Origin: a virus | Lineage: Duplodnaviria; Caudoviricetes | Reading direction: 5' to 3' (one strand) | DNA: 63,708 nt | Virus record (IMG/VR): IMGVR_UViG_3300028394_000003 | Coordinates: 1 to 63,708 of that record | Shown here: positions 6,831-57,307 of the stretch, piece after piece | Layout: the number at the start of each line of letters is the position of its first letter | How positions within the stretch are numbered: position 1 is the first letter of the stretch | Position numbers and translations under genes: made by a program | The notes under the pieces: model-generated | What the model was told of the DNA's origin: nothing | The model's database searches: none | What the model saw: the letters and a program-made list of their open reading frames with translations, nothing else

Positions 6831-7943
6831 TTATAACTCCGAAGAAAATGCACCGTAAGAAGTGGCGCTATTACTTCCACTCCATAAAGCGCCTGTGCCA
6901 GTAACAAATGTCCCTGCTGTTGAAATTCTTAAAAACATAGTATTGTAAGTAGACCCAACATCCGCAACTGACGTAACGGCATAGGGTGTTGCAGCAACTT
7001 GAACTGCAGTTACAGATGATGTTATCGTTGGTGTGGTTCTCATTGTTACTCTTAGAGGGACATATATATCACATTGTGTTGTACTAAATGCAAATCCATT
7101 TCCAATGATAGGGTAAAGAGGATTTCCACCAAAAGAATTTCCGCCAATTTGCTGGTAGTATCTTTGGCATTTAATTAATTCATTTCCAAAGTCCCTAAAC
7201 TCAAATCCAGTAGCAGAGCTACCTACTTCTAGTTGTACGCCTGTTATGTAGAATGTTGCGCCATTTGTGCCTACTACGCTTACTGCGCTTGTAACAGTAA
7301 AATATTGAGTAGCAGACCATGAACCAGCAGTTCCACTATAAGTTGAACCAGCTCCAAGGCTTAATCTAACCATTAACCCAATACCACTAGTTGTTAGCCA
7401 AGTTGCGGTTGTTGAACCAGCAATAGTAACACTAATTGTCGTCCATGTATTAGCAACGGAAATTGAATAACTAAATGGGTAATTTTGTGTGTTTGCGGAA
7501 TTATTTAATGAACCACCAAATGTTCCTGTAAGGCTTGAATATACTTGAAATGATAGAGTTACAGTTTTGGCATTAGCAGTTCCCCAAGCTAAATCTGCAA
7601 CATTGTACCCTTCAATGTATTGAAAAAACATAAAATAATCACTTGCACCTACTGTATAAGCAGAAGAAGATGTAAAGCCTAAATAGTTTGTATACCCTAC
7701 TGGCGGAGTTACAGAACCAGCATTTTGTTGCCAAGTTCCTTTAGATGATTGTGAAGCCGCATATCCCCATCTATCTACAGTATAAGAATTTATAGCGGTA
7801 CCACTAGCCCCAGCATTACGCTGGTCAATACGCATATCGCCGTTGATGATTCTGTTTTTAAAGACGGTAGCGTTACCAGCACCGAGGCTGACCCCCGTTA
7901 CGCTGCTTTGTATTACGTCTGCGTTGATTGTTCCGTATGCCAT
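6831..7943 (-). CDS. Tail fibre protein with carbohydrate-binding-like domain
   Basis: FKNRIINGDMRIDQRN, ITGVQLEVGS and EL..CQRYY motifs. Confidence 0.8.
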   Translation of the reverse strand: MAYGTINADVIQSSVTGVSLGAGNATVFKNRIINGDMRIDQRNAGASGTAINSYTVDRWGYAASQSSKGTWQQNAGSVTPPVGYTNYLGFTSSSAYTVGASDYFMFFQYIEGYNVADLAWGTANAKTVTLSFQVYSSLTGTFGGSLNNSANTQNYPFSYSISVANTWTTISVTIAGSTTATWLTTSGIGLMVRLSLGAGSTYSGTAGSWSATQYFTVTSAVSVVGTNGATFYITGVQLEVGSSATGFEFRDFGNELIKCQRYYQQIGGNSFGGNPLYPIIGNGFAFSTTQCDIYVPLRVTMRTTPTITSSVTAVQVAATPYAVTSVADVGSTYNTMFLRISTAGTFVTGTGALWSGSNSATSYGAFSSEL

Positions 7944-20619: not shown

Positions 20620-22065
20620 CTATTGTGCATAAGGATTAGAAAATCGTTTGTTAGAGTCATCATCAGCGTAATCATAGTCTCTTGCTGGCAATGGATCAAG
20701 CTGCAGCCAGCCCGAATCCCTGAGTACCCTTAAGGCTTGGGACAGGGAGTCTACGTAGTCATCATGGCCCCCGGCTTCAGGAAACGAGCACACCTGACGC
20801 AGGAAGCGTTTTGCCCATGAGGCGTAGTCGCTCTTTTGTTCGGTGTCTTCTGGTATGAATACCTTGCCCTTGGATACAAGGGGTGCCACAATGTTAAGCC
20901 GTTGTACCTTGTCTGCTCTTCCAGGGTTGTACCCACGGACAGGAACGCCGGCCCGCTGTAGTTCTTGGATTAAAGATATGCCAGCTGACTTGTCTTCCAT
21001 TAAGATTTGGTCTGCCTTACGGCCCTTACCAAACTCGTTATCTGACCCGTAGACTACTTCCTTAAAATCACTGATAACCTTACGACGCAGCTCGGGATAT
21101 GACAGGTGTTCATCCCATGCGTCTAAAAGAATAACGGATGTGCCAGCGTCTTCTCGTTCAAATATTCCCCACACCGTGCAGGCTGTCGGGTCGTTCATTG
21201 TCTTTTCGCTAGTAGCTGGGTCATAACTGGCGATCACGTACTCAAGAACGGGTGTCGGCTTGTTAGCGGGCCACATCTTAAACTGCTTACGCTTGATGAT
21301 ACCAGTGGCCTCTGGGTCAAGGATCTCGCCGTAGATCTCTTGGCGGCCCATGTCGGTGCCATCATAAGTCTCGAGCTGCTTAAAAAACGTTTCTGATAAG
21401 TTGGCTCGGTTGTCATACGAGCTGGCGTTAACCATGTACACGTCACCACCAATCTTACCCTCAGCTAAGTCTACAATTAATTCTTTTGGCTTTGGTGTGG
21501 TGGTAATAATCTGCTGCACTCGAGAGATCCTGGGATCCTTGAGTCGGAGCGTAAACTGTACTCCGTCGTAGGCTTCATCGAGGTAATCAAACGCACACAG
21601 CTCGTCGAACCAAGCGCCATGGTATTGCTTACCACGATACCGTTCAGGTTCAGAGGCGGGAATGCCTTGAATGATAGAGCCGTTGGTAAGGGTGATCTCG
21701 AATAGAGACTTGTTGTAGTCGCGGATGAGTGACTTGGGGATGATATTGATAAGCCCTGAGTCTCCCTCAAAACAAGTTGCGCGTATATCGTTGGAAGTCG
21801 GGGCTGTGACCAGCCATCTTGTATTGTCATAAAGCCAAGCGCGGATACCAATCCAATGACTGGCAGTGTGCGTCTTACCTGATCCACGACCAGCAAGCAT
21901 AAGGAACGTGTCATACTCATTGTCGTCTGGTTCTTTCTGGTGGGGTAGTGCCTGTAGCGACCACCTGACCTGCCACATAAGGGCCTCGAGCTGCTGGTTA
22001 GGCCAATGCTTACGTGCATCTGCAAACTTCTTTAGTGTAAGTTCTTGTTTAGGTGTTAAAGACAT
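20620..22065 (-). CDS. terL: Terminase large subunit
   Basis: Walker A AGRGSGKT, Walker B AWFDE, TTTP motif, C-terminal nuclease HDDYVDS. Confidence 0.93.
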   Translation of the reverse strand: MSLTPKQELTLKKFADARKHWPNQQLEALMWQVRWSLQALPHQKEPDDNEYDTFLMLAGRGSGKTHTASHWIGIRAWLYDNTRWLVTAPTSNDIRATCFEGDSGLINIIPKSLIRDYNKSLFEITLTNGSIIQGIPASEPERYRGKQYHGAWFDELCAFDYLDEAYDGVQFTLRLKDPRISRVQQIITTTPKPKELIVDLAEGKIGGDVYMVNASSYDNRANLSETFFKQLETYDGTDMGRQEIYGEILDPEATGIIKRKQFKMWPANKPTPVLEYVIASYDPATSEKTMNDPTACTVWGIFEREDAGTSVILLDAWDEHLSYPELRRKVISDFKEVVYGSDNEFGKGRKADQILMEDKSAGISLIQELQRAGVPVRGYNPGRADKVQRLNIVAPLVSKGKVFIPEDTEQKSDYASWAKRFLRQVCSFPEAGGHDDYVDSLSQALRVLRDSGWLQLDPLPARDYDYADDDSNKRFSNPYAQ

Positions 22066-23048
22066 GATATGAAGCCTTCTCCTACGAGAATCGTGTTGTC
22101 TTCCCCAGTGGTTTCTATATAAACACAGGACTGGGGTTGAATGGGGTCTATGCTGCAGACATACCGTCTACTCTGATGCACCTTTATCGGCGGCGAGTTC
22201 TGGTTCTCTATCAGCTTGATGCGTGATTTAAAAAATAACGTGTAATGCTTAAACGTGTTCTCAAAATTTTGTGAGGTTTTTATGCCGAGTGACTCAACTA
22301 AGAACTGAATCTGAGAAATTAAATTTAACTGCTTAGAAGAAAACTGAAAACTGTCTTTCTTTTGTGAGTATACCCTACTCTTAGTACAAAAAATTCCCCT
22401 AAGCAGTTCAATTCGCTGCTCAGGTGAGCCAAGTAGGTAGTTGTTTGATATTTTTGTGGGGATGTTAGGCACAAGCTGTGACTCAATACTTGGACTAACG
22501 CTAAAATCTCTGGATCCTGTCTTTTGTTTCCTGCCAAATTTTGTTTTGTAGCCAAAGTCTTTGAACTGTTGCTCAACATAGTCCTGCATCCCACGCGCCG
22601 CCGACAGTTTGCCGTTGGTTTTTCTGGCAAAGAACCAGAACCCCATGATGAATGGCGGGATTGGTAGTACTTGGTGGGGTAGTTCCAGGGGTTGGGTAGT
22701 CGGAACGGAGTAGACGAGGCGGTTTCTTTTGCTTTTAAGCGGCAAAGAAAGTAGATCTTGGATATTAGTAGGCTTAAGTGGTCTCCTAAACGCCCTAGTG
22801 CCCTTGTATGAGTTAAGCCTGTTGCGATACTTTTGGTTTTCCAATGGAAGTTTAAGCGCACCATCGCCTTGGATGGTAAGCCAATCGCTAAAAGTAATCT
22901 TGTAGCACTCAGTTGCCTGATATTTTTGAACTAATTTGACACGAACAATCTTGCCGTTCCTATCGAATACATAGTCACCCTCAACCAAACTCCCAGCACG
23001 CTTCCAGTAATCAAGCGTTAGTACTTTTTCTGTTGCTAATATCGCCAT
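22056..23048 (-). CDS. Free-standing intein-like protein (Hint plus LAGLIDADG-like domain), degenerate
   Basis: MAILATEKVLT..W....L.EGDYVFD.NG (block A), CYKITFSD (B), YLLGSPEQRIELLRGI (EN), C-terminal blocks F/G lacking the terminal HN. Confidence 0.75.
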   Translation of the reverse strand: MAILATEKVLTLDYWKRAGSLVEGDYVFDRNGKIVRVKLVQKYQATECYKITFSDWLTIQGDGALKLPLENQKYRNRLNSYKGTRAFRRPLKPTNIQDLLSLPLKSKRNRLVYSVPTTQPLELPHQVLPIPPFIMGFWFFARKTNGKLSAARGMQDYVEQQFKDFGYKTKFGRKQKTGSRDFSVSPSIESQLVPNIPTKISNNYLLGSPEQRIELLRGIFCTKSRVYSQKKDSFQFSSKQLNLISQIQFLVESLGIKTSQNFENTFKHYTLFFKSRIKLIENQNSPPIKVHQSRRYVCSIDPIQPQSCVYIETTGEDNTILVGEGFISCL

Positions 23049-23355: not shown

Positions 23356-23374
23356 AATAATATAAATAAATGCC

Positions 23375-23535
23375 AAAGTGCAAGGGTTGCAAGGCTTAAT
23401 CAGTCCCTCCAGTACTTAATAATATTTTTTTAATTTTTTTTTTAAAAGAATAAAAAGGGGTTACAACCCTAGCAACCCAAGGACCTAGTTTGCAAGTGCT
23501 TGATTATATTGAATCTAGATGATAATGATTCTCAA
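23375..23535. repeat. Origin-like element copy 1 (inverted GGGTTGC repeats around an A/T core, IHF site, Fur-like box)
   Basis: Diverged direct repeat of 29238-29399. Confidence 0.7.
23520..23534. promoter_or_regulatory. Fur-like box
   Basis: TGATAAT-G-ATTCTCA, one mismatch to 7-1-7 TGATAAT-N-ATTATCA. Confidence 0.6.
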
Positions 23536-23919
23536 GTAATTTTATAAAAAAATTTTACAATATGAAATTATGTGATATTTGTAAAAAAATATAAAAACTC
23601 AGGCTTTGTGGGGCCCCCCGCCCCCTCCTCCCCGATGGGACCCTAAACGGGTGTATGGCTTTATAAAAAGACCCCTTGCCATTATGCCTCCTAGCGTATG
23701 TGAGTGCTCACTTACAGGCCGAGCTGGCGGATCGACCAGTATGCTGCACTGCACCACCCCCAGTGAGCGCTCACTTACATGCAGGCACACCAGGCGGCTT
23801 GGCACTCAGGCACATCGACTGCTGATAATGGGGACAGAGTGGAGAGCGGGCCAGTGTGTTGCGCTGCAGTAATGGGGACAGAGTCGACGTGCTGCACTGC
23901 GTCATTGCCAGTTAGGCAG

Positions 23920-24220: not shown

Positions 24221-24249
24221 TTGAGTATTTGCATACACTGGAATAAAGT
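24221..24249 (+). promoter_or_regulatory. Probable host sigma70 early promoter
   Basis: TTGAGT-N17-TAAAGT with a T-tract upstream; heads the plus-strand early region. Confidence 0.55.
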
Positions 24250-24372
24250 CTCTATATGGGATGTGCAGTGGCTAATCCACTCAGTAGTAGAAGGACTCAA
24301 ACCCAACCGAGATAAATAAGGGGGAGCCGGCAGAACCGGTGCTGTTATCCAACACAGCGTATGACGGACACA

Positions 24373-24541
24373 GTAGCGCAGTAGGCTACTGGATCACCAA
24401 GTAGGCAAGCAGGAAACGGGGTAAGCCCCGAAACGGGTGTCACGGTAGTATGCGAGTCAGCATCCAAACAAGCAAACCGAATAGTCTTGGCCAAGTGTGT
24501 GGACTAGCATATCCACTTGATCCAGTAGCCTACTGCGCTAC
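24373..24541 (+). ncRNA. Structured RNA closed by a perfect 24-bp inverted repeat
   Basis: 24373-24396 is the exact reverse complement of 24518-24541; internal hairpins; no credible ORF. Confidence 0.65.
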
Positions 24542-24616
24542 AAGATAGTAATGCTCATAGCTACTTGTTACCAGGTAGCTAGAGGCAGTACTAACCAACC
24601 ACCAAGGAGATACACC

Positions 24617-24847
24617 ATGACCACATTAACATTTAAAAACCTCAACACAATCCTCGAAGTATTGCAGGCCCAGCGTCATGCTCAGGCCAAGACAACACAC
24701 TTCCACGATGGTGTAGTTAAAGAGGCGTTAAGCGGTAATAAAGAGAAGCTGGACTTCTTAGTAGAGCAACAAAGCAAAAACTACGTGCGCAAAAGCGAGC
24801 TGGACTATGCGTATTTTGCAGTTAAGGAATTAGTAGACGCATTCTAA
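24617..24847 (+). CDS. Early hypothetical protein
   Basis: aaggagatacaccATG; start revised to MTTLTF. Confidence 0.75.
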   Translation: MTTLTFKNLNTILEVLQAQRHAQAKTTHFHDGVVKEALSGNKEKLDFLVEQQSKNYVRKSELDYAYFAVKELVDAF

Positions 24848-24850
24848 ACA

Positions 24851-24905
24851 GGTCGAAACCGCATGGACGTGCGGTCTGAGCGTTAGGCGCTCACTGATGA
24901 TGACC
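24851..24905 (+). ncRNA. Hammerhead ribozyme type II, copy 1 (predicted cut after C24876)
   Basis: GGUC-GAAA-CCGCAU/GUGCGG-UC-UGAGCG/CGCUCA-CUGAUGA-U-GACC. Confidence 0.9.
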
Positions 24906-24924
24906 AACCAATAGGAGATACACC

Positions 24925-25041
24925 ATGATCTATTTCAATTCTAAACAAGAAGTATCAGAGTTCTTGACCAACTTGCGTTCCGCAGGTATTCGTTGCGCTG
25001 TTACTCAGTGCAATGGACGTTACGTATTACAGATACGTTAA
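24925..25041 (+). CDS. Small early protein (38 aa, not in ORF track)
   Basis: aggagatacaccATG; MIYFNSKQEVSEFLTNLRSAGIRCAVTQCNGRYVLQIR. Confidence 0.7.
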   Translation: MIYFNSKQEVSEFLTNLRSAGIRCAVTQCNGRYVLQIR

Positions 25042-25049
25042 GTAAGACA

Positions 25050-25102
25050 GGTCGAAACAGCCTCACGGCTGTCTGCACGTTAAGCGTGTACTGATGATGA
25101 CC
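25050..25102 (+). ncRNA. Hammerhead ribozyme type II, copy 2 (predicted cut after C25073)
   Basis: GGUC-GAAA-CAGCC/GGCUG-UC-UGCACG/CGUGUA-CUGAUGA-U-GACC. Confidence 0.9.
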
Positions 25103-25120
25103 AACCAAAGGAGAACCACC

Positions 25121-25342
25121 ATGATCACGACAGGCAAAACAGAATACGACGTAGGGCTGAGCTGGAAAGCATACGAGCATCTCGGTAGCAAAGGCAAGCT
25201 GGCCCTTAAGCGGGAACATAACTTTAAGGAGCGCACGTTCAAAACAAAAAATGAGGCCGAGCAGTTTGCAGCGGCTGAACGCGAACGAACTGGGCTGGAG
25301 CTGCGCGTAGGTGAGTGCACTCCAATCTACGGCATTTTGTAG
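25121..25342 (+). CDS. Small early protein
   Basis: aggagaaccaccATG; MITTGKTEY... Confidence 0.75.
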   Translation: MITTGKTEYDVGLSWKAYEHLGSKGKLALKREHNFKERTFKTKNEAEQFAAAERERTGLELRVGECTPIYGIL

Positions 25343-25346
25343 TAAA

Positions 25347-25399
25347 GGTCGAAACAGCCGCCAGGCTGTCTACACGTTAAGCGTGTACTGATGATGACC
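25347..25399 (+). ncRNA. Hammerhead ribozyme type II, copy 3 (predicted cut after C25370)
   Basis: GGUC-GAAA-CAGCC/GGCUG-UC-UACACG/CGUGUA-CUGAUGA-U-GACC. Confidence 0.9.
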
Positions 25400-25418
25400 A
25401 ACCAATAGGAGAACCACC

Positions 25419-25556
25419 ATGATTACAATACAAGAGCTATGCACCCTGCTACCCACGCCCGTGTGGCGTGTGCAGGGTAGAGTAAGCTGGCAGGAATATG
25501 TAGCAATGAGCAAATGGCGTGCTAATGAGGGCGCACAATGGAAAGCAACATTTTAA
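25419..25556 (+). CDS. Small early protein (45 aa, not in ORF track)
   Basis: aggagaaccaccATG; MITIQELCTLLPTPVWRVQGRVSWQEY...; stop abuts the next ribozyme. Confidence 0.7.
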   Translation: MITIQELCTLLPTPVWRVQGRVSWQEYVAMSKWRANEGAQWKATF

Positions 25557-25609
25557 GGTCGAAACAGCCTCACGGCTGTCTCCACGTAAGGCGTGGACTG
25601 ATGATGACC
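25557..25609 (+). ncRNA. Hammerhead ribozyme type II, copy 4 (predicted cut after C25580)
   Basis: GGUC-GAAA-CAGCC/GGCUG-UC-UCCACG/CGUGGA-CUGAUGA-U-GACC. Confidence 0.9.
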
Positions 25610-25628
25610 AACCAATAGGAGATACACC

Positions 25629-25883
25629 ATGATCAAACTTAAATCAATTCGCGTGCCCCAATTTAAAAAGGGCCAGAGCGAGTGGCACGTAGTCAACCGC
25701 AGTGATTACCAGTTGGTAGGCTTTATTTGCTTCTACGGCTCTGACAACGACTACCATTACGTGGCCTATGTAAAGAACGACGAAGAGTCAAGCGACCACC
25801 TGTTAGGCCGGTCACTGAGCCAATCAGGGGCATTATCCTTGATCCGCAATTATTACAAGGCTAGGGAGGCTGTATGTTTATAG
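25629..25883 (+). CDS. Small early protein
   Basis: aggagatacaccATG. Confidence 0.75.
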   Translation: MIKLKSIRVPQFKKGQSEWHVVNRSDYQLVGFICFYGSDNDYHYVAYVKNDEESSDHLLGRSLSQSGALSLIRNYYKAREAVCL

Positions 25884-28021: not shown

Positions 28022-28591
28022 GTGGCTGACAATGACATAAAGACGGACTACCTGCAGTCACTTTTTGGCATTGAGCCACTAACCATGAAAGAAGAGCACG
28101 CACTCGGTGCTCGCATAGCCAAGGGTGACAGCCTTGCGCTAGATAAACTTGTAACCCACAACTTACGCTTTGTGCCACACGTGGTCTGTAAGACTACGTA
28201 CTGGCAGCACGGCAAGATGCCGCTGGAGGACCTGCTCGCCATTGGTAATGAGCAGCTGCTCATCGCGGCCAAGCGCTGGAAGCCTATGAAGCATATTAGG
28301 TTCTCGGCGTTTGCCAGGTCATTCATACTGCGTGGACTACAGCGCGAGCTGGACAACACGGCAAACATCATCAGATTACCCATCAACATCATGGAAGAAC
28401 TAAAGCGCATGAATTATAACGAGCGCATGCTACTACAGGAACTGGGGCGTAAGCCACTGGTATCTGAGATAGCAAAGACGATGGACGTAAGAGAGTCAAG
28501 GATTCACCAGCTCAAAGGTTTTATAGCCAGAGAGCCAGTGAGTTTAGACAACATTGAGAATGACAAGTTTTTTGAGGAAAATGATGATTAA
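28022..28591 (+). CDS. Sigma70-family factor with regions 1.2-3 only (no region 4)
   Basis: LTMKEEHALG (1.2), LVTHNLRFV (2.1), EDLLAIGNEQL (2.2), RFSAFA (2.3), IIRLP, LLQELGRKP..EIA, PVSLD (3.2), then stop. Confidence 0.85.
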   Translation: MADNDIKTDYLQSLFGIEPLTMKEEHALGARIAKGDSLALDKLVTHNLRFVPHVVCKTTYWQHGKMPLEDLLAIGNEQLLIAAKRWKPMKHIRFSAFARSFILRGLQRELDNTANIIRLPINIMEELKRMNYNERMLLQELGRKPLVSEIAKTMDVRESRIHQLKGFIAREPVSLDNIENDKFFEENDD

Positions 28592-29143: not shown

Positions 29144-29237
29144 GAAGGAATAACAAGGACTTGGCGTTTAAGCTGTTTTTGATGTTTACGGCGATCTATT
29201 TTCTGGGTCATTTGGCCCACGCGCTGTATAAAGTATA

Positions 29238-29399
29238 AAAGTGCAAGGGTTGCGAGGCTTATTTAGTCCATGTCACCCAATATAATATTTTTTTTAATTT
29301 TTTTTAAAAAAGAGTTAAAAGGGTCTACAACCCTAGCAACCCTAGCACTGGATTCATAAGCCATTGATTTTATTAGAAACAGATGAGAACCGTTATCAT
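29238..29399. repeat. Origin-like element copy 2, directly upstream of the primase-helicase gene
   Basis: Same layout as 23375-23535; IHF-like 29357-29369, Fur-like 29384-29398. Confidence 0.7.
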
Positions 29400-29441
29400 T
29401 CACCATAATTTGCATTAATATACCCAATTAGAGAGGGCAAA

Positions 29442-40310: not shown

Positions 40311-40377
40311 TTATTTAAGGGTAGACGAACAGGCCCCTACTGAAGTCCTGTTCTACAGTTAAAAAGGTAATATCATC

Positions 40378-40905
40378 ATGGCAGCTAAATCAGTAAGAAC
40401 CAAACTAGTAACAAACAAAGTTCGTTTGTCTTTCGTTAACGTATTTGAACCAGCCGAGACATTAAACGGCGTACTTAAATATTCGACAATGGTATTAATT
40501 CCAAAGTCTGATAAAGAAGGTGTTGCCCGTTTTAATAAGGCATTTGAAGATACTAAGCAAGCCAATGCAGCATTCTTTGGTGGCTCAGTACCTAAGCTAT
40601 TAAAAGGTGGCTTACGTGATGGTGATGCAGAAAAAGAAGATCCAGAATTCGTGGGCCATTATTTCTTTAATGCTTACGCAAATATTGATCGTAAACCTGG
40701 CGTTGTAGACGCTGAAGTAAACCCAATCCTTGATAAGAATGAAGTGTACAGTGGTTGTTATGGTCGCGTGTCAATTGACTTGTTTCCGTATGACACAGCA
40801 GGCGCCCGTGGTATTGCTGTTGGCTTAAACAACGTTCAGAAGTTAGAAGACGGAGAACGTTTAGGTGGAGCTAGTACATCAGCAGCAACAGATTTTGCAG
40901 CATAA
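40378..40905 (+). CDS. Single-stranded DNA-binding protein (DUF2815 / gp2.5-like)
   Basis: VRLSF..VFEP, KYS..LIPK, LRDGD, YSGCYGR, GLNNVQK..DGE.L. Confidence 0.88.
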   Translation: MAAKSVRTKLVTNKVRLSFVNVFEPAETLNGVLKYSTMVLIPKSDKEGVARFNKAFEDTKQANAAFFGGSVPKLLKGGLRDGDAEKEDPEFVGHYFFNAYANIDRKPGVVDAEVNPILDKNEVYSGCYGRVSIDLFPYDTAGARGIAVGLNNVQKLEDGERLGGASTSAATDFAA

Positions 40906-49769: not shown

Positions 49770-50654
49770 TTAATCGTTTCCGTAGTAATACTGACTTGAA
49801 CCATCTTCGCTAGGTGCCGTTACCTCTTCGTACGGAGAGGCTGGGCTTGGCATGTCGCTGTTAGTTGGTATTCTGTTAAACAAGTCCATTAATTTAGGAC
49901 CAACTTGTGTTAAATTACCAAGTCCTAAACTATTTAATACACTAGTGCCTAGTCCAGCTACTGCACCAATTTGACTAAACGGAGACATTTGATTTTGCTG
50001 TGCTACGAGACCTGGAACACTAACGTCATTAACTAAGTTTGCGTAACTTCCAAGGTTCTGGAATGGAGCGTTCATTTGAGTATTACCAGCTGTCATTTCG
50101 GTGCCCAGTTGTTGGTTAAGTACGTTACCCAATCCAGTGCCCGCCTGTACGCCAGTGGTTTGATTCTGTAGCGCAGACTGCATTTGCTGAGCCGATAAGT
50201 TAGCGAATGCGTCAGCTTTAGCTTTATTAAGCGCAGTTTCTCCGCGCAAACTGCCAAATTGACCAGACGCAATATTAGCACCTTGAACCGGGGCTGTATA
50301 ATTTGGCATCAATTGGTTTAGCTGTTGGTTTTGTGCTTGAAACAATCCGCCCATTGCCGTGTTGGTATTTGGGGTTACTTGGCCGTTGGCTCCAGTAATC
50401 CAAGGATTAGCCGCACCCTGAGCAATTTGACCTAACGCGCCTTGGGCTTGGTTAAATGAATTATTAGGGTTTTGCAAAGTATTAATAGCCTGCTGACCCA
50501 CCGTATTTTGAAAAGTTGGCGCATCGGCAAGTGCCTGATGTGCTCCACTTACAATACCTTTTTGCGCGTCAGTATACCACGCTGGTAATGTAGTTTCTTT
50601 TACGTATGTATCGGTTAAAAAGTTATTTAAACCAGTTGATCCTGTTGTTGCCAT
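49770..50654 (-). CDS. DNA transfer/pilot-like internal virion protein
   Basis: Q/N/A/G-rich; GQFGSLR; C-terminal amphipathic GAVAGLG. Confidence 0.65.
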   Translation of the reverse strand: MATTGSTGLNNFLTDTYVKETTLPAWYTDAQKGIVSGAHQALADAPTFQNTVGQQAINTLQNPNNSFNQAQGALGQIAQGAANPWITGANGQVTPNTNTAMGGLFQAQNQQLNQLMPNYTAPVQGANIASGQFGSLRGETALNKAKADAFANLSAQQMQSALQNQTTGVQAGTGLGNVLNQQLGTEMTAGNTQMNAPFQNLGSYANLVNDVSVPGLVAQQNQMSPFSQIGAVAGLGTSVLNSLGLGNLTQVGPKLMDLFNRIPTNSDMPSPASPYEEVTAPSEDGSSQYYYGND

Positions 50655-53600
50655 TATGCTCTCACTTTACGTTTTGCTTCTAATAAGTAACCTAGCGCAC
50701 CCTTACTATCTGGTGGCAGTCCATTTTTATTTGCACGGGTCTTGTGCGATCTAATTGTCTTTAAAAATTCGTCAAGTATAGATGCACCGCTGTCATTACT
50801 TCCATTGCCTAAAGATGATACCACATCGGCAGGTATTACAAACTCGCCGTTTGCTAACATTGCTGGAATGCTATCACTAGTTCCGTCACCGTCACCTTGA
50901 ACGTAACGATTTTCCATGGCGTTTAAACCACCTTCACTAAAGAACTGTGGGTTGTGGTTTATAACTTCTCCGCCAGTACTTAGCGCTGGTGCGTTAGCCA
51001 TTGTATTTAATCCAACAAAAGGCTTATGAAATGAAAATTGCTTACCCTTCATTTTGGTTTCAGCAAAAGACGGATCAAACGCAGGATTTGTATCTTGAGC
51101 ACCACCAACTGCCATGTGAACAACACCACCCTGAGCAGCGGCTAAAATTTGCTTTAGTACTGCATCTGGATTATATATAGGCTGTGCGTATGTATACTGT
51201 TGCAAGTCATACTTCCCTGGTAAGGCAGGATCTGTGGCCTTACCTTTAATAAAATTAGAAACCGGAGAGTATGAAGCGTCACCTGGGCCGACACTCATAT
51301 TTGAACCTGAGCTGGCACCTGCAGTGTTTGAACTAGAAGGATTCCCACCAGTTGCTAACCGCATTAGGCCACCTTCTTTAGCGGCTTTTAGTTGCTGTTC
51401 TAAATCCATTGGTAAAAACGGAGGGCTTATATAATTTTCCATAGGTATCACATTACTTGGTTTAGTTGAATCAATAACACGCATTAATTTGTCTAAAGGC
51501 AGTGCGTGCTTTCTACCTTTTGTAAAGTCTGCTATTAAATCCGGGGGAACTCGTTTTTTAAACTTACCCTTATCCACTGGTTTCTTCTTTATCGGTGGAA
51601 CTAATGTTGGTACGTTTGTCTTTGGCCCTTTTGACGGTTTTGTCGGGTCTTCCGGTGTAACTATAACAGGTGGGCTTATTGGTTCTATACTCGGTGGAAC
51701 TAGTTCTAACGGCGGTTTAACTTTCGATGGCGGATTAATTGATGTAATAACCGACGTCGGTGTTAGCGGGTCCAACACAGCAATATCCACTGGCACAGGT
51801 GTTGGGCTTACTGGCTCTAATTGTGTTAAGGTTTGTGTCTGAGGCTGTATTTTAGTTAAATCTTTTAATGCAATATCCGTTTTCGTTGGATTTTCTGTTG
51901 CAAGTTGTGTTGCAGTCTGCGTTTGCGGCGCTGTTATAGTACTTGTCAATGACCGTGGATCGGTAATTGTTTTTAAATTTGCGTCTGTATCTGTTACGGT
52001 CTGTGTAACCGGTTTTCCGTAAATCAATTCTCCGCGAGTCTTTGTTGCTGTATCTGTATCCGTCTGCGTATCTGTCTGTGTATTAGTTTCTGGTGCTGTT
52101 AAATCCGTACCAAAAAGAGTATTTTTGTTAAATAGTCTGTTAATGTCTGGTTTTTCAGCAAATGGCAATCCCTCAGTTTTTTGTGTTTCTGTGCTTCTTT
52201 GCATTTGAGGCACTAAATCATCATCACCCAATTTAAGACCAACCAAGTCGTTTAACGTTTTTTTAATATCTTCTATTAAAACTTGGTTGTGCTGTATGTC
52301 GTTTTTATTGCTAGTGGGAGTTTCACCAGAAGATTTAACAGAAGTAATATTACTTCCAAAATGAACAAATGGATTACCCCTTGCTTCACTGTCTGAATTT
52401 AATATTTCTACAGGAACCATACCTACTTTTGGAGTTGTTTCGTATGACGCTGTTCCTAATTTAGTTCCCGCTTTTAATGGGCCATAATCTTTTGTTAATT
52501 CAACCGATGTTTTTCCAGTGGAATTTCCTTCTGAGTCTACTTCAAACGTAAATTTTACGCCCATATCTGGGTTTTGAAAATACCCCCCAACGTTATTAAC
52601 AGTCGTCGGATCCATGAAAACAGTTTTTGAAGACCTCGGCTGAGTTTCTTGCCCAGTACCCGGCATATTGGAAGGTTCTCTAAATCCTACTGTAGTTCCG
52701 TCTGAATACTGTGAGTATGTAGACCCACGTGATGTTTCAAACTGGTAAGTTGCACTACTTGAAGTTTCAATTACTGGGGTGTGTGTTGCCAAAGCTCCAA
52801 ACACGCCAGAAATAGTAATATCATTTCCAGCGGCGTCAGTTCCCAATACTTTATTAGGATCTAACTTTCCTGCTTCCGTAGTGATGTTGTTATTAATTTG
52901 AGTTACCAACTCAGATCCAATAGTTTTAATCGCCATTGAATTTGCCTGGTCTGCAGGAATACCAGTTTGTTGCAACGTCTGCGAAATTGTATCTATTGTA
53001 TTTTGAACATTAACCATCTGTTCAGCAGAAGGTGCTGGTAATAATCTCTGCGGCCCTTCTAATAACTTAGGCGCTTCCCAAGAAAACTGGCTTTCAGTTT
53101 TCGGTGGTGCTAACTTTAAAAATTGATTTGTGTCTACTTCAGCTTTTGAATTTGCAAAACTTGCAATAACAAGTTGGTTAACTGCTGAAACAGCGCTAAT
53201 TGGTGCATCCATGGCGGCATTAGTATTCATCTTATTAAGATTAAAACTAAAATTAGCCATTGAATCTTTTGGATCGCCAGCAACCACAGCAATATCGCGT
53301 ACTCCGGTATTTAGGAAAGAACGGGTCCAAGCCCCAACATACGCAGCTGTGGCAAGTCCTGCCATTCCTTTTGTAGTGAACTCTACAATATCTCCAGAAA
53401 GTTGACGCATGATAGCTGCATCAACATGGCCCATGGTTGCTAAAGTTATGAAACCCTGTGCTATGCCACTGGCTACTGCAGGCGCAACTGCGTCTTCGTG
53501 ACTCACCTTTTTAGCTCGTAAATCGTCGTAGGATATTCCCAAACCACCAAGCGTGGCATCTAAAGTATCAAGTGCCAACTCTGTACCGATTGCAATTCTT

Positions 53601-56600
53601 AATGCGTTAAAACTTCCAGCAATCTTAGCGAAAAACCCAGCGGCCCCAGCTATGCCCATAAACATTGTGTCTTGAAGAATTTCTGGGCCAGCTATTTTAA
53701 CAAACGCGGCGGGATACTGTAAGTACGCCTTAATTGCCATTAATTCTTTTGTGCCCGCTGGTGCGTCTTCCACCATTTTCCTAGCAAGTGCGTAACCATC
53801 GTCCATTGCTTTTATTACAGCTGGGGGCACATTTTTATTAGCAAAATCATTAACTGCTTTGCCTGCCAAATACATGTCATTTTCTCTGCCATATGGTGAA
53901 ATTAAAAGAGCAGAAAAATTTTGTATTTGTTGACCTATCATGGTAACCGCAGCCCATTGCATCACACCGGGTGCGTATTTAGCCACATCAACAAGCGCGT
54001 CCATTACCTCTTTTGCACCGGTTAAAATATTTGGTTGTCCCGGTTCCGCGTTAGGTGATATAAAACTTTCCATTGACTTTTGAACAGCGTCAAACGTTGG
54101 AACACGGCTTTTAATATCTTCTAAACTTGGTAACTCTATTGCTGAAATATTTTTAGCTAAATTGTTTGCAGATGATTCTACTGTATTAGAAAGCCTATCA
54201 ATAAATCGTTTTGTGCTGCCCTCAAACATTGGGGCTGTGTCCTTAGCAAAATCTATAGCCTCTTGTAACGTCCTAGTTTTTGGTGTTAAACCTTCGCTTA
54301 AAACTTGCATAGCCGACTTAGGCGGCGCTTCTGGTGTAGCAGCAGAAGGAGGCGGCGCTAAGGCAGTTGTGTACTGTTTTCCGTTCCATTCAAACGCTTT
54401 AGCACCAGATGCCCTAGCTTCTTTAAACGCATCACCAAAATTGTCCGCAGTAGATACAATTGTCTTATCTTTTGAAACAGAACCCGTTGATATATAATTA
54501 GTATAGGCGTCTGCTTTATCTTTAGGAATTTGGTATAAATCTTGCAAATTACGAGAAATATCAGTTTTTGATAATCCTTGAGCTTGCATTTCTTTTGTAA
54601 CGTATTCTAAATTCTTTTGGTTATCGCCAGTTAACAATTTTGCAGCATTTAAAACACCAATTGGGTCACTAGAATTATTTGCTAATTTTTCTATTACATT
54701 GTTAGCAACAGTATTTTGGTAATACCCTTCTGCTGTTTTTGTGTCTATATTATATATAGCTGCTAAATTAGATACAATATCTTGTCTTGGTATGTTTTGG
54801 TCAACCATTTCATTGGTAACAATCCGCATATTTGAAATTGGATCACCAGTCCAATTATTTTGTGCTGCAAACATACCCAATGGATCTTTAGATGCATTTA
54901 CGTATGGATCAACAAGACCGCGTTGTAACACCGTATCTACTGCACCGCTAGTAAGTCCAACATTTTCTGTAAAGTTAGTTGGGTTTAAGGCGGCACGCTC
55001 AGCAGCAACTTCTCTTGCAGTATCAATAAAAAATCCAGCCACTAAAGATGGCATGTTATTCATCACTGCAGTTTGTACGTTTTGACCTTTTAACAAAGCG
55101 CTTGTTGCTATTTGACCTGCGGCCTGTGCGGCTCTTATTGCTGCCTGTAACGCATCTGGGTTTATTTGCTTAACTATGTCCCCTGCGTATTGCCCAACGC
55201 TACTAGCAGCTAAATTAGTAAACAACTCTGTCATGAAATTTTCTGAGCTTATTTTTCCAGCTACTACTGAAGCAAAAGTCATTGAAATTGTTCTGCCAAT
55301 TACATCCTGTACATTTTTAGTGGCTTCTGCAAAACTAAATGCTCCCGGAGGTATTCCCATTGCATCTGTTATTGACTGTATAGTAGCCTCGCCAACAAGG
55401 TTGGTTGCTACTTGACCCACTCCAGCGCTTACTAATGAACCCATACCACCAGTTACCGCGCCTATGATAGCACCCTTAGCAGCTGCTTGTGCTATGTCTC
55501 CACCGGTGCCTGCAGCCATTATTGCACCTGTAGCCGCCATTGTCATTGCCGTCGTTGCAGCTGCTGCGGCGGCAGCTCCTGCGGCACTAGTTCCAAATGC
55601 CGTTGCAAGTGCGGGTCCAAATTCGGCGGACACAACCGGGCCCATTGCCCAGCCAACAGAGGCCATAACAATTGCAGACGTTATTTGGAAACCAATTTGG
55701 TTTAAACCAGTGAAACCACCTGGGTCTTGTGGTGTAATATCTTGAATTGTAATTGGTAATTTTGAATCTTTAGTAAACAGTAAGTTACCAGTTTCTTTAT
55801 CTACCAAGAATTCAGGCGTAACTATTGGAATTCTAACACCACCACCAAGATCAATTGAATCTTTTCCACCATACTCACCACCAGAGTACACCGTATTACG
55901 ATAACCCATTCGTTGGTTTGCAATACCAGCGGGGCTAGTATAAGAGGACATTGCGGGCATAGCAAATATTCCGCTATCACTAACAACAACTGTTTCACCA
56001 GTTGGGGTTACGTAGACCTTATAGTCTCCAGTAACTCCCATTTCACGGGCGCCTCTTGCAGCTAAATTAGTGTAATACTCGTTGCCCTTCATATCCGGTG
56101 TTACTGGTGTTGCACCTGCAGTTACCTTATCAATAGCAAGTTTATTCATTTCTACTTGTTTTTGATACGCTTCTGAATCTGGTCCGTTTACTGCTTTTTC
56201 TCTATCACTTGTTGGGTTTCCGTCAGCGTCTCTCCAAAGATAAATATGGTTAGTTGATGTTAACTGACCAGTTTCTGGATCATACTGTGCTGCAGTTGGA
56301 AGCTCAGAATACTTTATTAATTTACTTTGATATTCGTCACTATTTATAATACCGGCTTTAACCTCTTCAGGTGTCTTGTCTTTCCATGTATCTAATCCGG
56401 TTTGATCCGCTGGACGGTCTAAGTAATATTGGTAAAGTGCGTTCACATCTGTCGGATGTGGCATTGACTTATACTCATCACTGGCCATAATACCTGCCGC
56501 GACTTCCTCTGGTGTTTTACCAGCCCATGCAGCTATTTCTCCTTGGCTTGGGGTGCGGCCAAGATTGTTCCTATAAAGATAGCTTGTAACAACAGGCGCA

Positions 56601-57307
56601 AATTCTGCGCTTGTTATAATTGATTGTTTAATTTCATCAGGTGTTTTACCAGCAAAAGTAGCTAAAGCTCCTGCATCTGGATTACGACCTAAGTACTGGT
56701 TAAAAAGTGAAGTTGTGTTATATGTTGAATACTCTGGACTGGCTTTAAGCGCATTGGTAACATCTTGCGTTGACATATTAGCAAAAGTTTGTGCACCAGA
56801 TTGATCAACATTTCGACCTAAATATTTTAAATAAAGCGCATTTAAATCTGCAGTGTCACCTTGGCCAGGACCAGTTTGAACTGGTGTGGCTGCATTTTGT
56901 GATGGTGTAATATTAAAATTAGTGTCACCAGTTGGCGTTATGGGGTTTCTTGATGCATATTCACCACTGTTTAAAATACCCTGAAGCACTGTGTTGTAGT
57001 CTTGACCAGTCCAAGTAGAAGCACCAGATTGGTCAACTCCACGGCCTAAATACTGTTGGTATAGCTGATCTAATCCTGCTTGGTCAACACCACCACCTCT
57101 ATTTGTATCGTATACTTGAGGTGGACTAGTTAAGCTGTTGTCACCACCGCCACCGCCACCACCACCACCGCCTTGATCTGGAGCAGGGCCAGTTTGAATT
57201 GGCGCGGCATTATTAAATTCAGGAGGTGCAGCTTCAACCGTTACAGAGCTTTCCGCTGGCGCGTCGTCTACCCAAGTTGCACTGTCTCCGCTATCTACCC
57301 AACCCAT
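50654..57307 (-). CDS. Giant internal virion/ejection protein (2217 aa) with DUF4214-like repeats
   Basis: Five LY..YLGR..D..G repeats; hydrophobic Ala/Gly region; C-terminal GDGTSDSIPAMLANGEFVIPAD. Confidence 0.75.
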   Translation of the reverse strand: MGWVDSGDSATWVDDAPAESSVTVEAAPPEFNNAAPIQTGPAPDQGGGGGGGGGGDNSLTSPPQVYDTNRGGGVDQAGLDQLYQQYLGRGVDQSGASTWTGQDYNTVLQGILNSGEYASRNPITPTGDTNFNITPSQNAATPVQTGPGQGDTADLNALYLKYLGRNVDQSGAQTFANMSTQDVTNALKASPEYSTYNTTSLFNQYLGRNPDAGALATFAGKTPDEIKQSIITSAEFAPVVTSYLYRNNLGRTPSQGEIAAWAGKTPEEVAAGIMASDEYKSMPHPTDVNALYQYYLDRPADQTGLDTWKDKTPEEVKAGIINSDEYQSKLIKYSELPTAAQYDPETGQLTSTNHIYLWRDADGNPTSDREKAVNGPDSEAYQKQVEMNKLAIDKVTAGATPVTPDMKGNEYYTNLAARGAREMGVTGDYKVYVTPTGETVVVSDSGIFAMPAMSSYTSPAGIANQRMGYRNTVYSGGEYGGKDSIDLGGGVRIPIVTPEFLVDKETGNLLFTKDSKLPITIQDITPQDPGGFTGLNQIGFQITSAIVMASVGWAMGPVVSAEFGPALATAFGTSAAGAAAAAAATTAMTMAATGAIMAAGTGGDIAQAAAKGAIIGAVTGGMGSLVSAGVGQVATNLVGEATIQSITDAMGIPPGAFSFAEATKNVQDVIGRTISMTFASVVAGKISSENFMTELFTNLAASSVGQYAGDIVKQINPDALQAAIRAAQAAGQIATSALLKGQNVQTAVMNNMPSLVAGFFIDTAREVAAERAALNPTNFTENVGLTSGAVDTVLQRGLVDPYVNASKDPLGMFAAQNNWTGDPISNMRIVTNEMVDQNIPRQDIVSNLAAIYNIDTKTAEGYYQNTVANNVIEKLANNSSDPIGVLNAAKLLTGDNQKNLEYVTKEMQAQGLSKTDISRNLQDLYQIPKDKADAYTNYISTGSVSKDKTIVSTADNFGDAFKEARASGAKAFEWNGKQYTTALAPPPSAATPEAPPKSAMQVLSEGLTPKTRTLQEAIDFAKDTAPMFEGSTKRFIDRLSNTVESSANNLAKNISAIELPSLEDIKSRVPTFDAVQKSMESFISPNAEPGQPNILTGAKEVMDALVDVAKYAPGVMQWAAVTMIGQQIQNFSALLISPYGRENDMYLAGKAVNDFANKNVPPAVIKAMDDGYALARKMVEDAPAGTKELMAIKAYLQYPAAFVKIAGPEILQDTMFMGIAGAAGFFAKIAGSFNALRIAIGTELALDTLDATLGGLGISYDDLRAKKVSHEDAVAPAVASGIAQGFITLATMGHVDAAIMRQLSGDIVEFTTKGMAGLATAAYVGAWTRSFLNTGVRDIAVVAGDPKDSMANFSFNLNKMNTNAAMDAPISAVSAVNQLVIASFANSKAEVDTNQFLKLAPPKTESQFSWEAPKLLEGPQRLLPAPSAEQMVNVQNTIDTISQTLQQTGIPADQANSMAIKTIGSELVTQINNNITTEAGKLDPNKVLGTDAAGNDITISGVFGALATHTPVIETSSSATYQFETSRGSTYSQYSDGTTVGFREPSNMPGTGQETQPRSSKTVFMDPTTVNNVGGYFQNPDMGVKFTFEVDSEGNSTGKTSVELTKDYGPLKAGTKLGTASYETTPKVGMVPVEILNSDSEARGNPFVHFGSNITSVKSSGETPTSNKNDIQHNQVLIEDIKKTLNDLVGLKLGDDDLVPQMQRSTETQKTEGLPFAEKPDINRLFNKNTLFGTDLTAPETNTQTDTQTDTDTATKTRGELIYGKPVTQTVTDTDANLKTITDPRSLTSTITAPQTQTATQLATENPTKTDIALKDLTKIQPQTQTLTQLEPVSPTPVPVDIAVLDPLTPTSVITSINPPSKVKPPLELVPPSIEPISPPVIVTPEDPTKPSKGPKTNVPTLVPPIKKKPVDKGKFKKRVPPDLIADFTKGRKHALPLDKLMRVIDSTKPSNVIPMENYISPPFLPMDLEQQLKAAKEGGLMRLATGGNPSSSNTAGASSGSNMSVGPGDASYSPVSNFIKGKATDPALPGKYDLQQYTYAQPIYNPDAVLKQILAAAQGGVVHMAVGGAQDTNPAFDPSFAETKMKGKQFSFHKPFVGLNTMANAPALSTGGEVINHNPQFFSEGGLNAMENRYVQGDGDGTSDSIPAMLANGEFVIPADVVSSLGNGSNDSGASILDEFLKTIRSHKTRANKNGLPPDSKGALGYLLEAKRKVRA

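Follow-up and report, generated by a model that had tools for sequence, protein, structure and literature searches.

A perfect inverted repeat in a phage early leader as the closing helix of a probable and optional structured RNA module

What is a perfect 24-bp inverted repeat doing at the head of a phage early operon? The question is raised by a tailed-phage genome (Duplodnaviria; Caudoviricetes), IMG/VR record IMGVR_UViG_3300028394_000003, which is complete (63,708 bp, bounded by direct terminal repeats) and the whole of which we call the window. Two gene blocks, a minus-strand structural block that ends in a two-part large terminase (22056-23048 and 20620-22065) and a plus-strand block that starts at 24617 and consists of small early-type genes, are separated by a ~1.5-kb gap poor in open reading frames (ORFs), and within this gap a first-pass annotation had placed an unrecognized structured non-coding RNA (24256-24541). 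We find that the repeat is the closing helix (P1) of a ~170-nt structured RNA module in the 5′ untranslated leader of the early operon, that the element is very probably a real structured RNA family, and that the module is optional, its slot being empty in some close relatives and taken by a type III hammerhead in one more. We see the element as a hitherto undescribed RNA family, resembling an rRNA-type processing stem around a functional RNA, in a phage early leader, and its carriers are a group of uncultivated, mostly freshwater tailed phages.

The two arms of P1, at 24373-24396 (GTAGCGCAGTAGGCTACTGGATCA, +) and 24518-24541 (+), are 24 nt each and 100% complementary (24/24), just as first read, and they enclose 121 nt in the window copy. 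Of the eight inverted repeats (≥18 nt, within 400 nt) in the 63.7-kb window, P1 is the sole 100% case and the rest reach 76-85%; the chance expectation for a perfect 24-nt pair within 400 nt is 9e-8. Folding of 24256-24560 as RNA gave −105.9 kcal/mol (z = −3.99; 0 of 100 shuffles as stable), with the P1 duplex present in both the minimum free energy and the centroid structures. A palindrome, CAGTAG-G-CTACTG, in each arm of the window copy suggested an operator or iteron, an idea that we rejected as coincidence: the window shows no enrichment of the motif (3 matches versus 1.8 expected; with 3 mismatches, 20 versus 15), and the other eight copies described below lack the palindrome. The exact 24-nt arm had 0 matches in viral contigs, and the 67 loci found with a 14-nt arm probe, none of which holds the element, were chance matches.

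Close relatives were recovered from viral contigs with a terminase probe and a conserved-leader probe, and probes from the interior of the element found further copies in L080, L081, L082, L083, L085, L086, and L091; L011 holds a diverged copy at the same site. Together with the window these make nine distinct copies, with L084, which reads like L080, entered with it as one, and with L090, a match to a 17-mer probe, set aside as a chance match and not a copy. All nine occupy one slot in one orientation, i.e., early promoter, leader, module, hairpin, ribosome-binding site (RBS), and a first gene that varies from copy to copy. A covariance model built from eight of the nine copies (effective sequence number 0.74) found exactly one copy per carrier locus, at 159-195 bits on the plus strand versus 40-52 bits on the reverse strand, and none in the 67 control loci, in the empty-site loci L007-L009 and L012, in L004-L006 and L010, or in the annotated relatives MW202545.1 and Caulobacter phage RW.

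Homologue collection and a covariation test were among the checks that the first-pass annotation had proposed, and the nine copies gave clear covariation by a column-shuffle test. A 46-pair model is paired in 99.5% of 414 cells, with 17 pairs changed on both sides and a covariation score reached by 0 of 500 shuffles, and pairing falls to 27-39% when the partners are slid by 1-3 columns. P1 accounts for 25 of these pairs (99.6% paired; 10 changed on both sides) and is 24-25 bp long without mismatch in 9/9 copies, the pairing of its 3′ arm being kept throughout the alignment and its sole departures from Watson-Crick pairing being 2 G-U cells. Inside it, hairpin P2 (CGGGG-TAAG-CCCCG; 24417-24430, +) has 2 of 4 stem pairs changed on both sides, a G-U pair in 7/9 copies, and a loop of TAAG or TTCG, and hairpin P3 (GGGTGT/GCATCC; 24435-24465, +) has 6 pairs, 100% paired and 4 of them changed on both sides, around a loop that is 4 nt in the other copies and expanded in the window copy only. 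The two strands can be told apart by G-U pairs, which become A-C mismatches on the opposite strand: over all helices, 418/424 cells pair on the plus strand versus 380/424 on the minus strand, and over the interior helices 219/224 versus 183/224, the plus strand being that of the early genes. Compensatory changes preserve P1, P2, and P3, and the structure belongs specifically to the plus strand, which upholds the structured non-coding RNA first proposed from a single copy. The judgment that the element holds no credible ORF also stands: ORFs overlapping it are all ≤49 aa, and the copies differ by 15- and 20-nt indels; a conserved reading frame is therefore unlikely.

What lies inside the closing helix? 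The conserved RNA within P1 ranges from 106 to 126 nt among the copies and includes a near-invariant 53-nt core (24465-24517, +), in which 50 of 53 columns are invariant across eight copies and two further positions, each compensating the other, are changed in the ninth (L091). Because the stems around this core have diverged, in carrier phages that are only 65-78% identical to the window in terminase and primase genes, its invariance points to constraint and not to recent transfer. Two further helices are tentative, being based on very little variation: P5 (GTGGA-CTAGCATA-TCCAC; 24499-24516, with arms at 24499-24503 and 24512-24516, +; 5 pairs, 100% paired) shows an A-U to U-A swap in L091, and P6, which would stack on P1, pairs CCAAG (24397-24401, +) with a proposed partner CTTGG at 24486-24490 (5 pairs, 100% paired), with one pair alternating between C-G and U-G and no two-sided change. 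An alternative interior from RNAalifold (P1b plus P4) is slightly worse (98.3% paired) and breaks exactly at the two L091 changes, which compensate instead in the GUGGN/N′CCAC hairpin, i.e., P5. The inner stems drawn at first reading fared unevenly: CGGGG/CCCCG is P2 and covaries, ATGC/GCAT and CGGT/ACCG use a 15-nt stretch that is unique to the window copy and not conserved, and TAGTC/GACTA is invariant except in L091, where it is broken and the competing GTGGA/TCCAC is preserved by the swap. The core also contains a perfectly self-complementary 10-mer, CTTGGCCAAG (24486-24495, +), which reads CTTGGCTAAG in 4/9 copies and still self-pairs there via G-U. This 10-mer could pair with the CCAAG beside P1 or form RNA dimers, and the self-complementary CUUGGCCAAG of the core could pair with a second copy of the element.

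The slot itself takes different contents in close relatives. L006 and L010 are ~88% identical to the window, with homology that runs from the terminase to 24373, the start of the left arm, and resumes at 25048; their slot holds a type III hammerhead candidate directly 5′ of the first gene (RF00008, 33.7 bits against a gathering score of 48.5, E = 4e-4), which has the expected three-stem fold and lies at L006 4675-4733 (−), equivalent to L010 about 7460-7520 (+). This form displaces both the module and the hairpin downstream of it (M4). The sites in L007, L008, L009, and L012 are empty, the same leader running directly into the M4 hairpin and then the RBS (L007 and L009 read alike across the stretch compared). 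Contigs assembled from public freshwater and lake runs hold the window-type element almost unchanged in X4 and X6, with a different downstream gene in X6; X24 joins 24363 to 24543, which is the empty form, and a loose end of X4 carries the hammerhead form. None of the 24 public runs with this stretch is on record as RNA, and X24, guessed to be RNA, is marked “probably DNA”; these runs have no bearing on expression.

Does the element belong to a known family? The first-pass annotation had not recognized one, and neither did Rfam 15, which gave no match overlapping 24256-24541 at E ≤ 10 (2.5-kb scan) and none on the elements in eight related loci (seven with copies) at E ≤ 0.1. At gathering scores, the whole window matches only the DUF2815 RNA, located elsewhere (RF03084, 76.9 bits versus a gathering score of 41.2; 40318-40380, +), a motif that runs up to the start of ORF 40378-40905. 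Among 8.4 million searchable papers and preprints, not one contains the core strings of the element, and no title or abstract retrieved on structured phage RNAs names it. We also considered 6S RNA, phi29 pRNA, and Y RNA and set them aside, as Rfam reports none of them, the module is dispensable, and its interior branches instead of forming a rod with a bubble.

What, then, might such a module do? We favor a reading in two parts, processing and release, which taken whole commands about as much doubt as confidence. Host RNA polymerase would start ~115 nt upstream of the element, and host RNase III would cut the uninterrupted 24-25-bp P1 duplex on both strands; the cut would detach the 5′ leader from the first cistron, the outcome given by the hammerhead in the relative, and would free a stable ~120-150-nt RNA whose conserved core would act in trans on a host or phage partner early in infection. 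Predicted cleavage of P1 by RNase III is, taken by itself, a finely balanced call, and a trans-acting released RNA is a possibility that we hold only tentatively, thinking it somewhat doubtful. Double-stranded RNA (dsRNA) of ~20 bp or more (about two helical turns, roughly 20-22 bp) is an RNase III substrate, a length that the 24-25 uninterrupted bp of P1 exceed, and rRNA and T7 early RNAs are released by this enzyme. The processing stems of 16S and 23S rRNA flanks and the R sites of T7 early mRNA are like the element in that a long duplex forms from the flanks of a functional RNA in a polycistronic transcript. T7 R sites are short hairpins with an internal loop, whereas the element is a perfect duplex around a conserved RNA, with cleavage a prediction only.

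Several observations weigh against processing and release. First, the case for RNase III is one of helix length alone, a perfect Watson-Crick repeat is equally expected of a DNA-level inverted repeat, and P1 by itself carries nearly no strand information (199/200 cells paired on the plus strand versus 197/200 on the minus strand). Second, the copies are kin, as the low effective sequence number indicates, and seven P1 changes set the window copy apart from all others, so that independent events are well below the cell counts. Third, two interior models compete, P5 offering one compensatory change and P6 one one-sided change, and the interior alone is not more stable than shuffled sequence (z −0.3 to −1.05). 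Fourth, the promoter match in the window is weak (8/12, below the scan threshold), and close relatives do without the module altogether. As to partners, the interior gives only chance-level matches of 10-16 nt to the phage as antisense targets, and family searches found no RNase III or dsRNA-binding domain encoded by the phage. Since the phage lacks both, cutting P1 would need a host enzyme; control runs matched RNase III and dsRNA-binding families in Caulobacter vibrioides, the host of the closest cultured relatives.

The first alternative, which we consider unlikely though deserving of serious weight, keeps the RNA and dispenses with the cut: an uncleaved, cis-acting leader structure that would stabilize or insulate the 5′ end of the early mRNA, modify the polymerase in the manner of HK022 put, or bind a host protein. 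It draws on position, the element always lying between promoter and first RBS, and on P1 cleavage being itself predicted. The early promoter assigned to the window is putative (TTGAGT at 24221-24226, a 17-nt spacer, and TAAAGT at 24244-24249, +; hexamers 8/12 by eye), and the promoter scan at its threshold found no plus-strand site in the window, while three relatives have promoter-like sites of 9-11/12 on the strand of the element, 114-141 nt upstream of it. The element is also flanked by other conserved leader hairpins, namely a 5′-proximal one and M4. The former (GTGG-CTAAT-CCAC; 24268-24280, +) is present in 7 of the 8 other copies, those with flank reaching it, and is not seen in L082; its stem (24268-24271/24277-24280) reads GTAG/CTAC in L081, L085, and L086, a two-sided change. 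M4 (24546-24593, +; −24.0 kcal/mol, z = −5.15, 0 of 200 shuffles as stable) is found in element-bearing and empty-site relatives, where its upper stems differ yet remain complementary, and is absent from the hammerhead-III form.

Between the 5′-proximal hairpin and the module lies a “type A” leader segment (24323-24359, +), a 37-mer that is identical in 6 related loci and contains the hairpins CCGG-CAGAA-CCGG and GCTGT-TATCCAAC-ACAGC. These hairpins (24327-24358) are invariant in type A leaders, giving no covariation information, and absent from type B leaders; among the upstream hairpins of the first-pass annotation, GTGG/CCAC is accordingly corroborated in relatives, and CCGG/CCGG and GCTGT/ACAGC are neither supported nor refuted. 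Type B, a leader of ~110 nt (…CAACAGGTGACTAAGTACCAGCCTGT…GTGGCAGACCTAG…), stands in place of type A in L080 (about 1930-2036), L081, L083, L085, and L091 (6140-6255); it is common to several phages and looks structured itself, with no Rfam match at E ≤ 0.1. Set against an uncleaved cis structure, a stabilizer or insulator needs no 53-nt invariant core, close relatives manage with an empty slot, and in most bacteria RNase III could hardly be kept away from a mismatch-free duplex of 24-25 bp, as found in every copy. In HK022, put RNAs in the early leaders modify the transcribing polymerase. Like the element, putL and putR are structured RNAs just 3′ of a phage early promoter with a non-coding action; they consist of two short stem-loops of ~70 nt with no long closing duplex, unlike the element, and are likened to it by description only.

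A second alternative, for which we see a fairly low probability, is that the element is a new class of self-cleaving ribozyme (or other catalytic RNA) that processes the leader and replaces the hammerhead of the relative. The shared slot speaks for it, as does an operon rich in hammerheads. A 79-nt intercistronic repeat occurs in four copies (24851-24929, 25048-25126, 25345-25423, and 25555-25633, +), each a hammerhead followed by an RBS, and one copy precedes each of the four genes after the first early gene. Each copy has the fold of a type II hammerhead, its cores being GAAAC and CUGAUGA, and lies ~20 nt 5′ of a start codon. Rfam reports three of these candidates under RF02276, at 25050-25110 (32 bits against a gathering score of 37, E = 5.6e-4; fold z = −3.19), 25347-25407 (30.4 bits; z = −3.80), and 25557-25617 (30.8 bits; z = −3.94), and does not report the first (24851-24905), which has the three-stem fold, GAAAC and CTGATGA cores, and z = −2.43; all are on the plus strand. 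Hammerhead-II cores lie downstream on the same strand in 13/13 related loci examined, and none was found in the examined stretches of MW202545.1 or Caulobacter phage RW. In the contigs from public runs, cassettes are gained or lost between the 79-nt repeats, e.g., X4 joins 24849 to 25049. No RtcB ligase, which would circularize hammerhead products, is encoded by the phage. The early transcript resembles self-contained cassettes strung together with processing sites between them, the element behaving as a gene-less cassette.

Such punctuation has a precedent in Perreault et al. 2011 (PMC3088659), which describes hammerheads flanking single genes in prophages and, in a haloarchaeal virus, a hammerhead located 13 nt ahead of the first ORF in an early polycistronic transcript, with a mapped 5′ end at the cleavage site. 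The slot hammerhead of L006 and L010 has the same arrangement as the latter. Hammerheads of this punctuating kind share the operon of our element and, in one relative, its slot, with a presumed role of separating leader or cistrons; the element lacks their CUGAUGA/GAAA core arrangement and is about three times larger. Conservation is also ribozyme-like, with near-invariant junction and core nucleotides and variable, covarying peripheral P2 and P3, and earlier ribozyme classes were discovered beside known ribozymes. However, no known ribozyme family matches the element at E ≤ 10 in the same scan that finds hammerheads 500-1000 nt downstream, and a perfect closing helix of 24-25 bp is neither required by nor typical of small ribozymes. 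Moreover, the empty-site relatives carry no ribozyme in the slot at all, which implies that the slot need not be cleaved, and the hammerhead takes the place of M4 as well as of the module.

A third alternative, which we regard as improbable, places the function in DNA: a miniature inverted-repeat mobile element (MITE) or an invertible segment, with no role as RNA, whose repeats would be kept identical by its own mechanics. With such elements ours shares perfect terminal inverted repeats, which differ in sequence by sub-type while left and right still match, and a presence/absence polymorphism with sharp borders, and the near absence of a strand signal in P1 alone fits as well. A MITE would be expected at many sites with target duplications, whereas each carrier locus has a single copy, the slot never changes, the window holds no second copy, and the borders show no convincing target-site duplication (by eye); two core probes gave 0 matches, as host or prophage copies, in one genome each of 185,579 prokaryote species. 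An invertible segment would call for a recombinase and both orientations, whereas a single orientation is common to the nine copies and to contigs X4 and X6, and the complete phage record has no match to resolvase or tyrosine recombinase (phage-integrase) families, no transposase, and no reverse transcriptase. Finally, the interior hairpins covary, and they include G-U pairs that are possible on the plus strand only.

The weakest alternative, a retron-type msr/msd non-coding RNA with the P1 arms as a1/a2, can be put aside with near certainty: the likeness noted in the first-pass annotation is one of layout only, inverted repeats (not defining alone) around a structured RNA of roughly the right size, and the element is not a retron because no reverse transcriptase is encoded, as that annotation had itself remarked (no RVT_1 match at E ≤ 0.1 in the complete 63.7-kb record, in a run whose controls were positive in 4/14 control genomes), and because Rfam gives no match, while the neighboring downstream gene is small and differs between copies.

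Beyond the element, several features describe the phage that carries it. DNA similarity to the window gave no match among 50,697 phage records, and the closest cultured relatives by terminase are Caulobacter phages (43% terminase identity). The large terminase is read as two ORFs, 20620-22065 and 22056-23048 (−), with a 10-nt overlap, the ATPase-like N-terminal part being split from the C-terminal one; the annotation of Caulobacter phage RW also lists two “large terminase subunit” genes, with a methyltransferase gene between them. The first early gene, with its RBS (AGGAG), spans 24605-24847 (+), starts with ATG at 24617, and encodes 76 aa with no PHROG match. The block of small early genes closes with a sigma-factor-like protein (28022-28591, +; phrog_351, E = 1.6e-22), which suggests a switch from host sigma-70 promoters once the early phase ends. 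The entire block is bracketed by a ~175-nt direct repeat (23360-23540 and 29225-29400, +; 84% mean column identity), each copy of which contains a G+C-rich inverted repeat with an A/T-rich center; one copy drew a call of a terminator-like site on the minus strand (23478-23458) and was also picked out by weak miRNA-precursor models. Elsewhere, a 2217-aa ORF (50654-57307, −) has no PHROG family match at E ≤ 0.001.

Beyond what was seen from the single copy, the module is optional, at least nine phages carry it, and its slot is taken by a hammerhead ribozyme in a close relative. Early phage transcripts carry tools for host takeover and counter-defence, and nearly all such tools known so far are proteins. 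Here, a non-coding module behaves like a swappable early cassette: it is optional, sharply bounded, more conserved than the genes of the phage, and positionally interchangeable with a ribozyme. A bolder proposition, which we think unlikely but worth stating, is that this gene-free cassette of a ribozyme-punctuated operon either represents a new class of catalytic RNA that processes itself or is cut out to act in trans against a host factor at the onset of infection (e.g., in counter-defence or host takeover). The family is small (nine copies) and covaries strongly, and a 300-nt transcript would be enough to test it. Should RNase III indeed cut the duplex, the group would have two ways of freeing the first cistron from its leader, by a host enzyme or by a ribozyme, and would provide a natural comparison system. 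Should the released RNA cut itself or have a target of its own, a new functional RNA class would have come to light by the logic of looking next to ribozymes.

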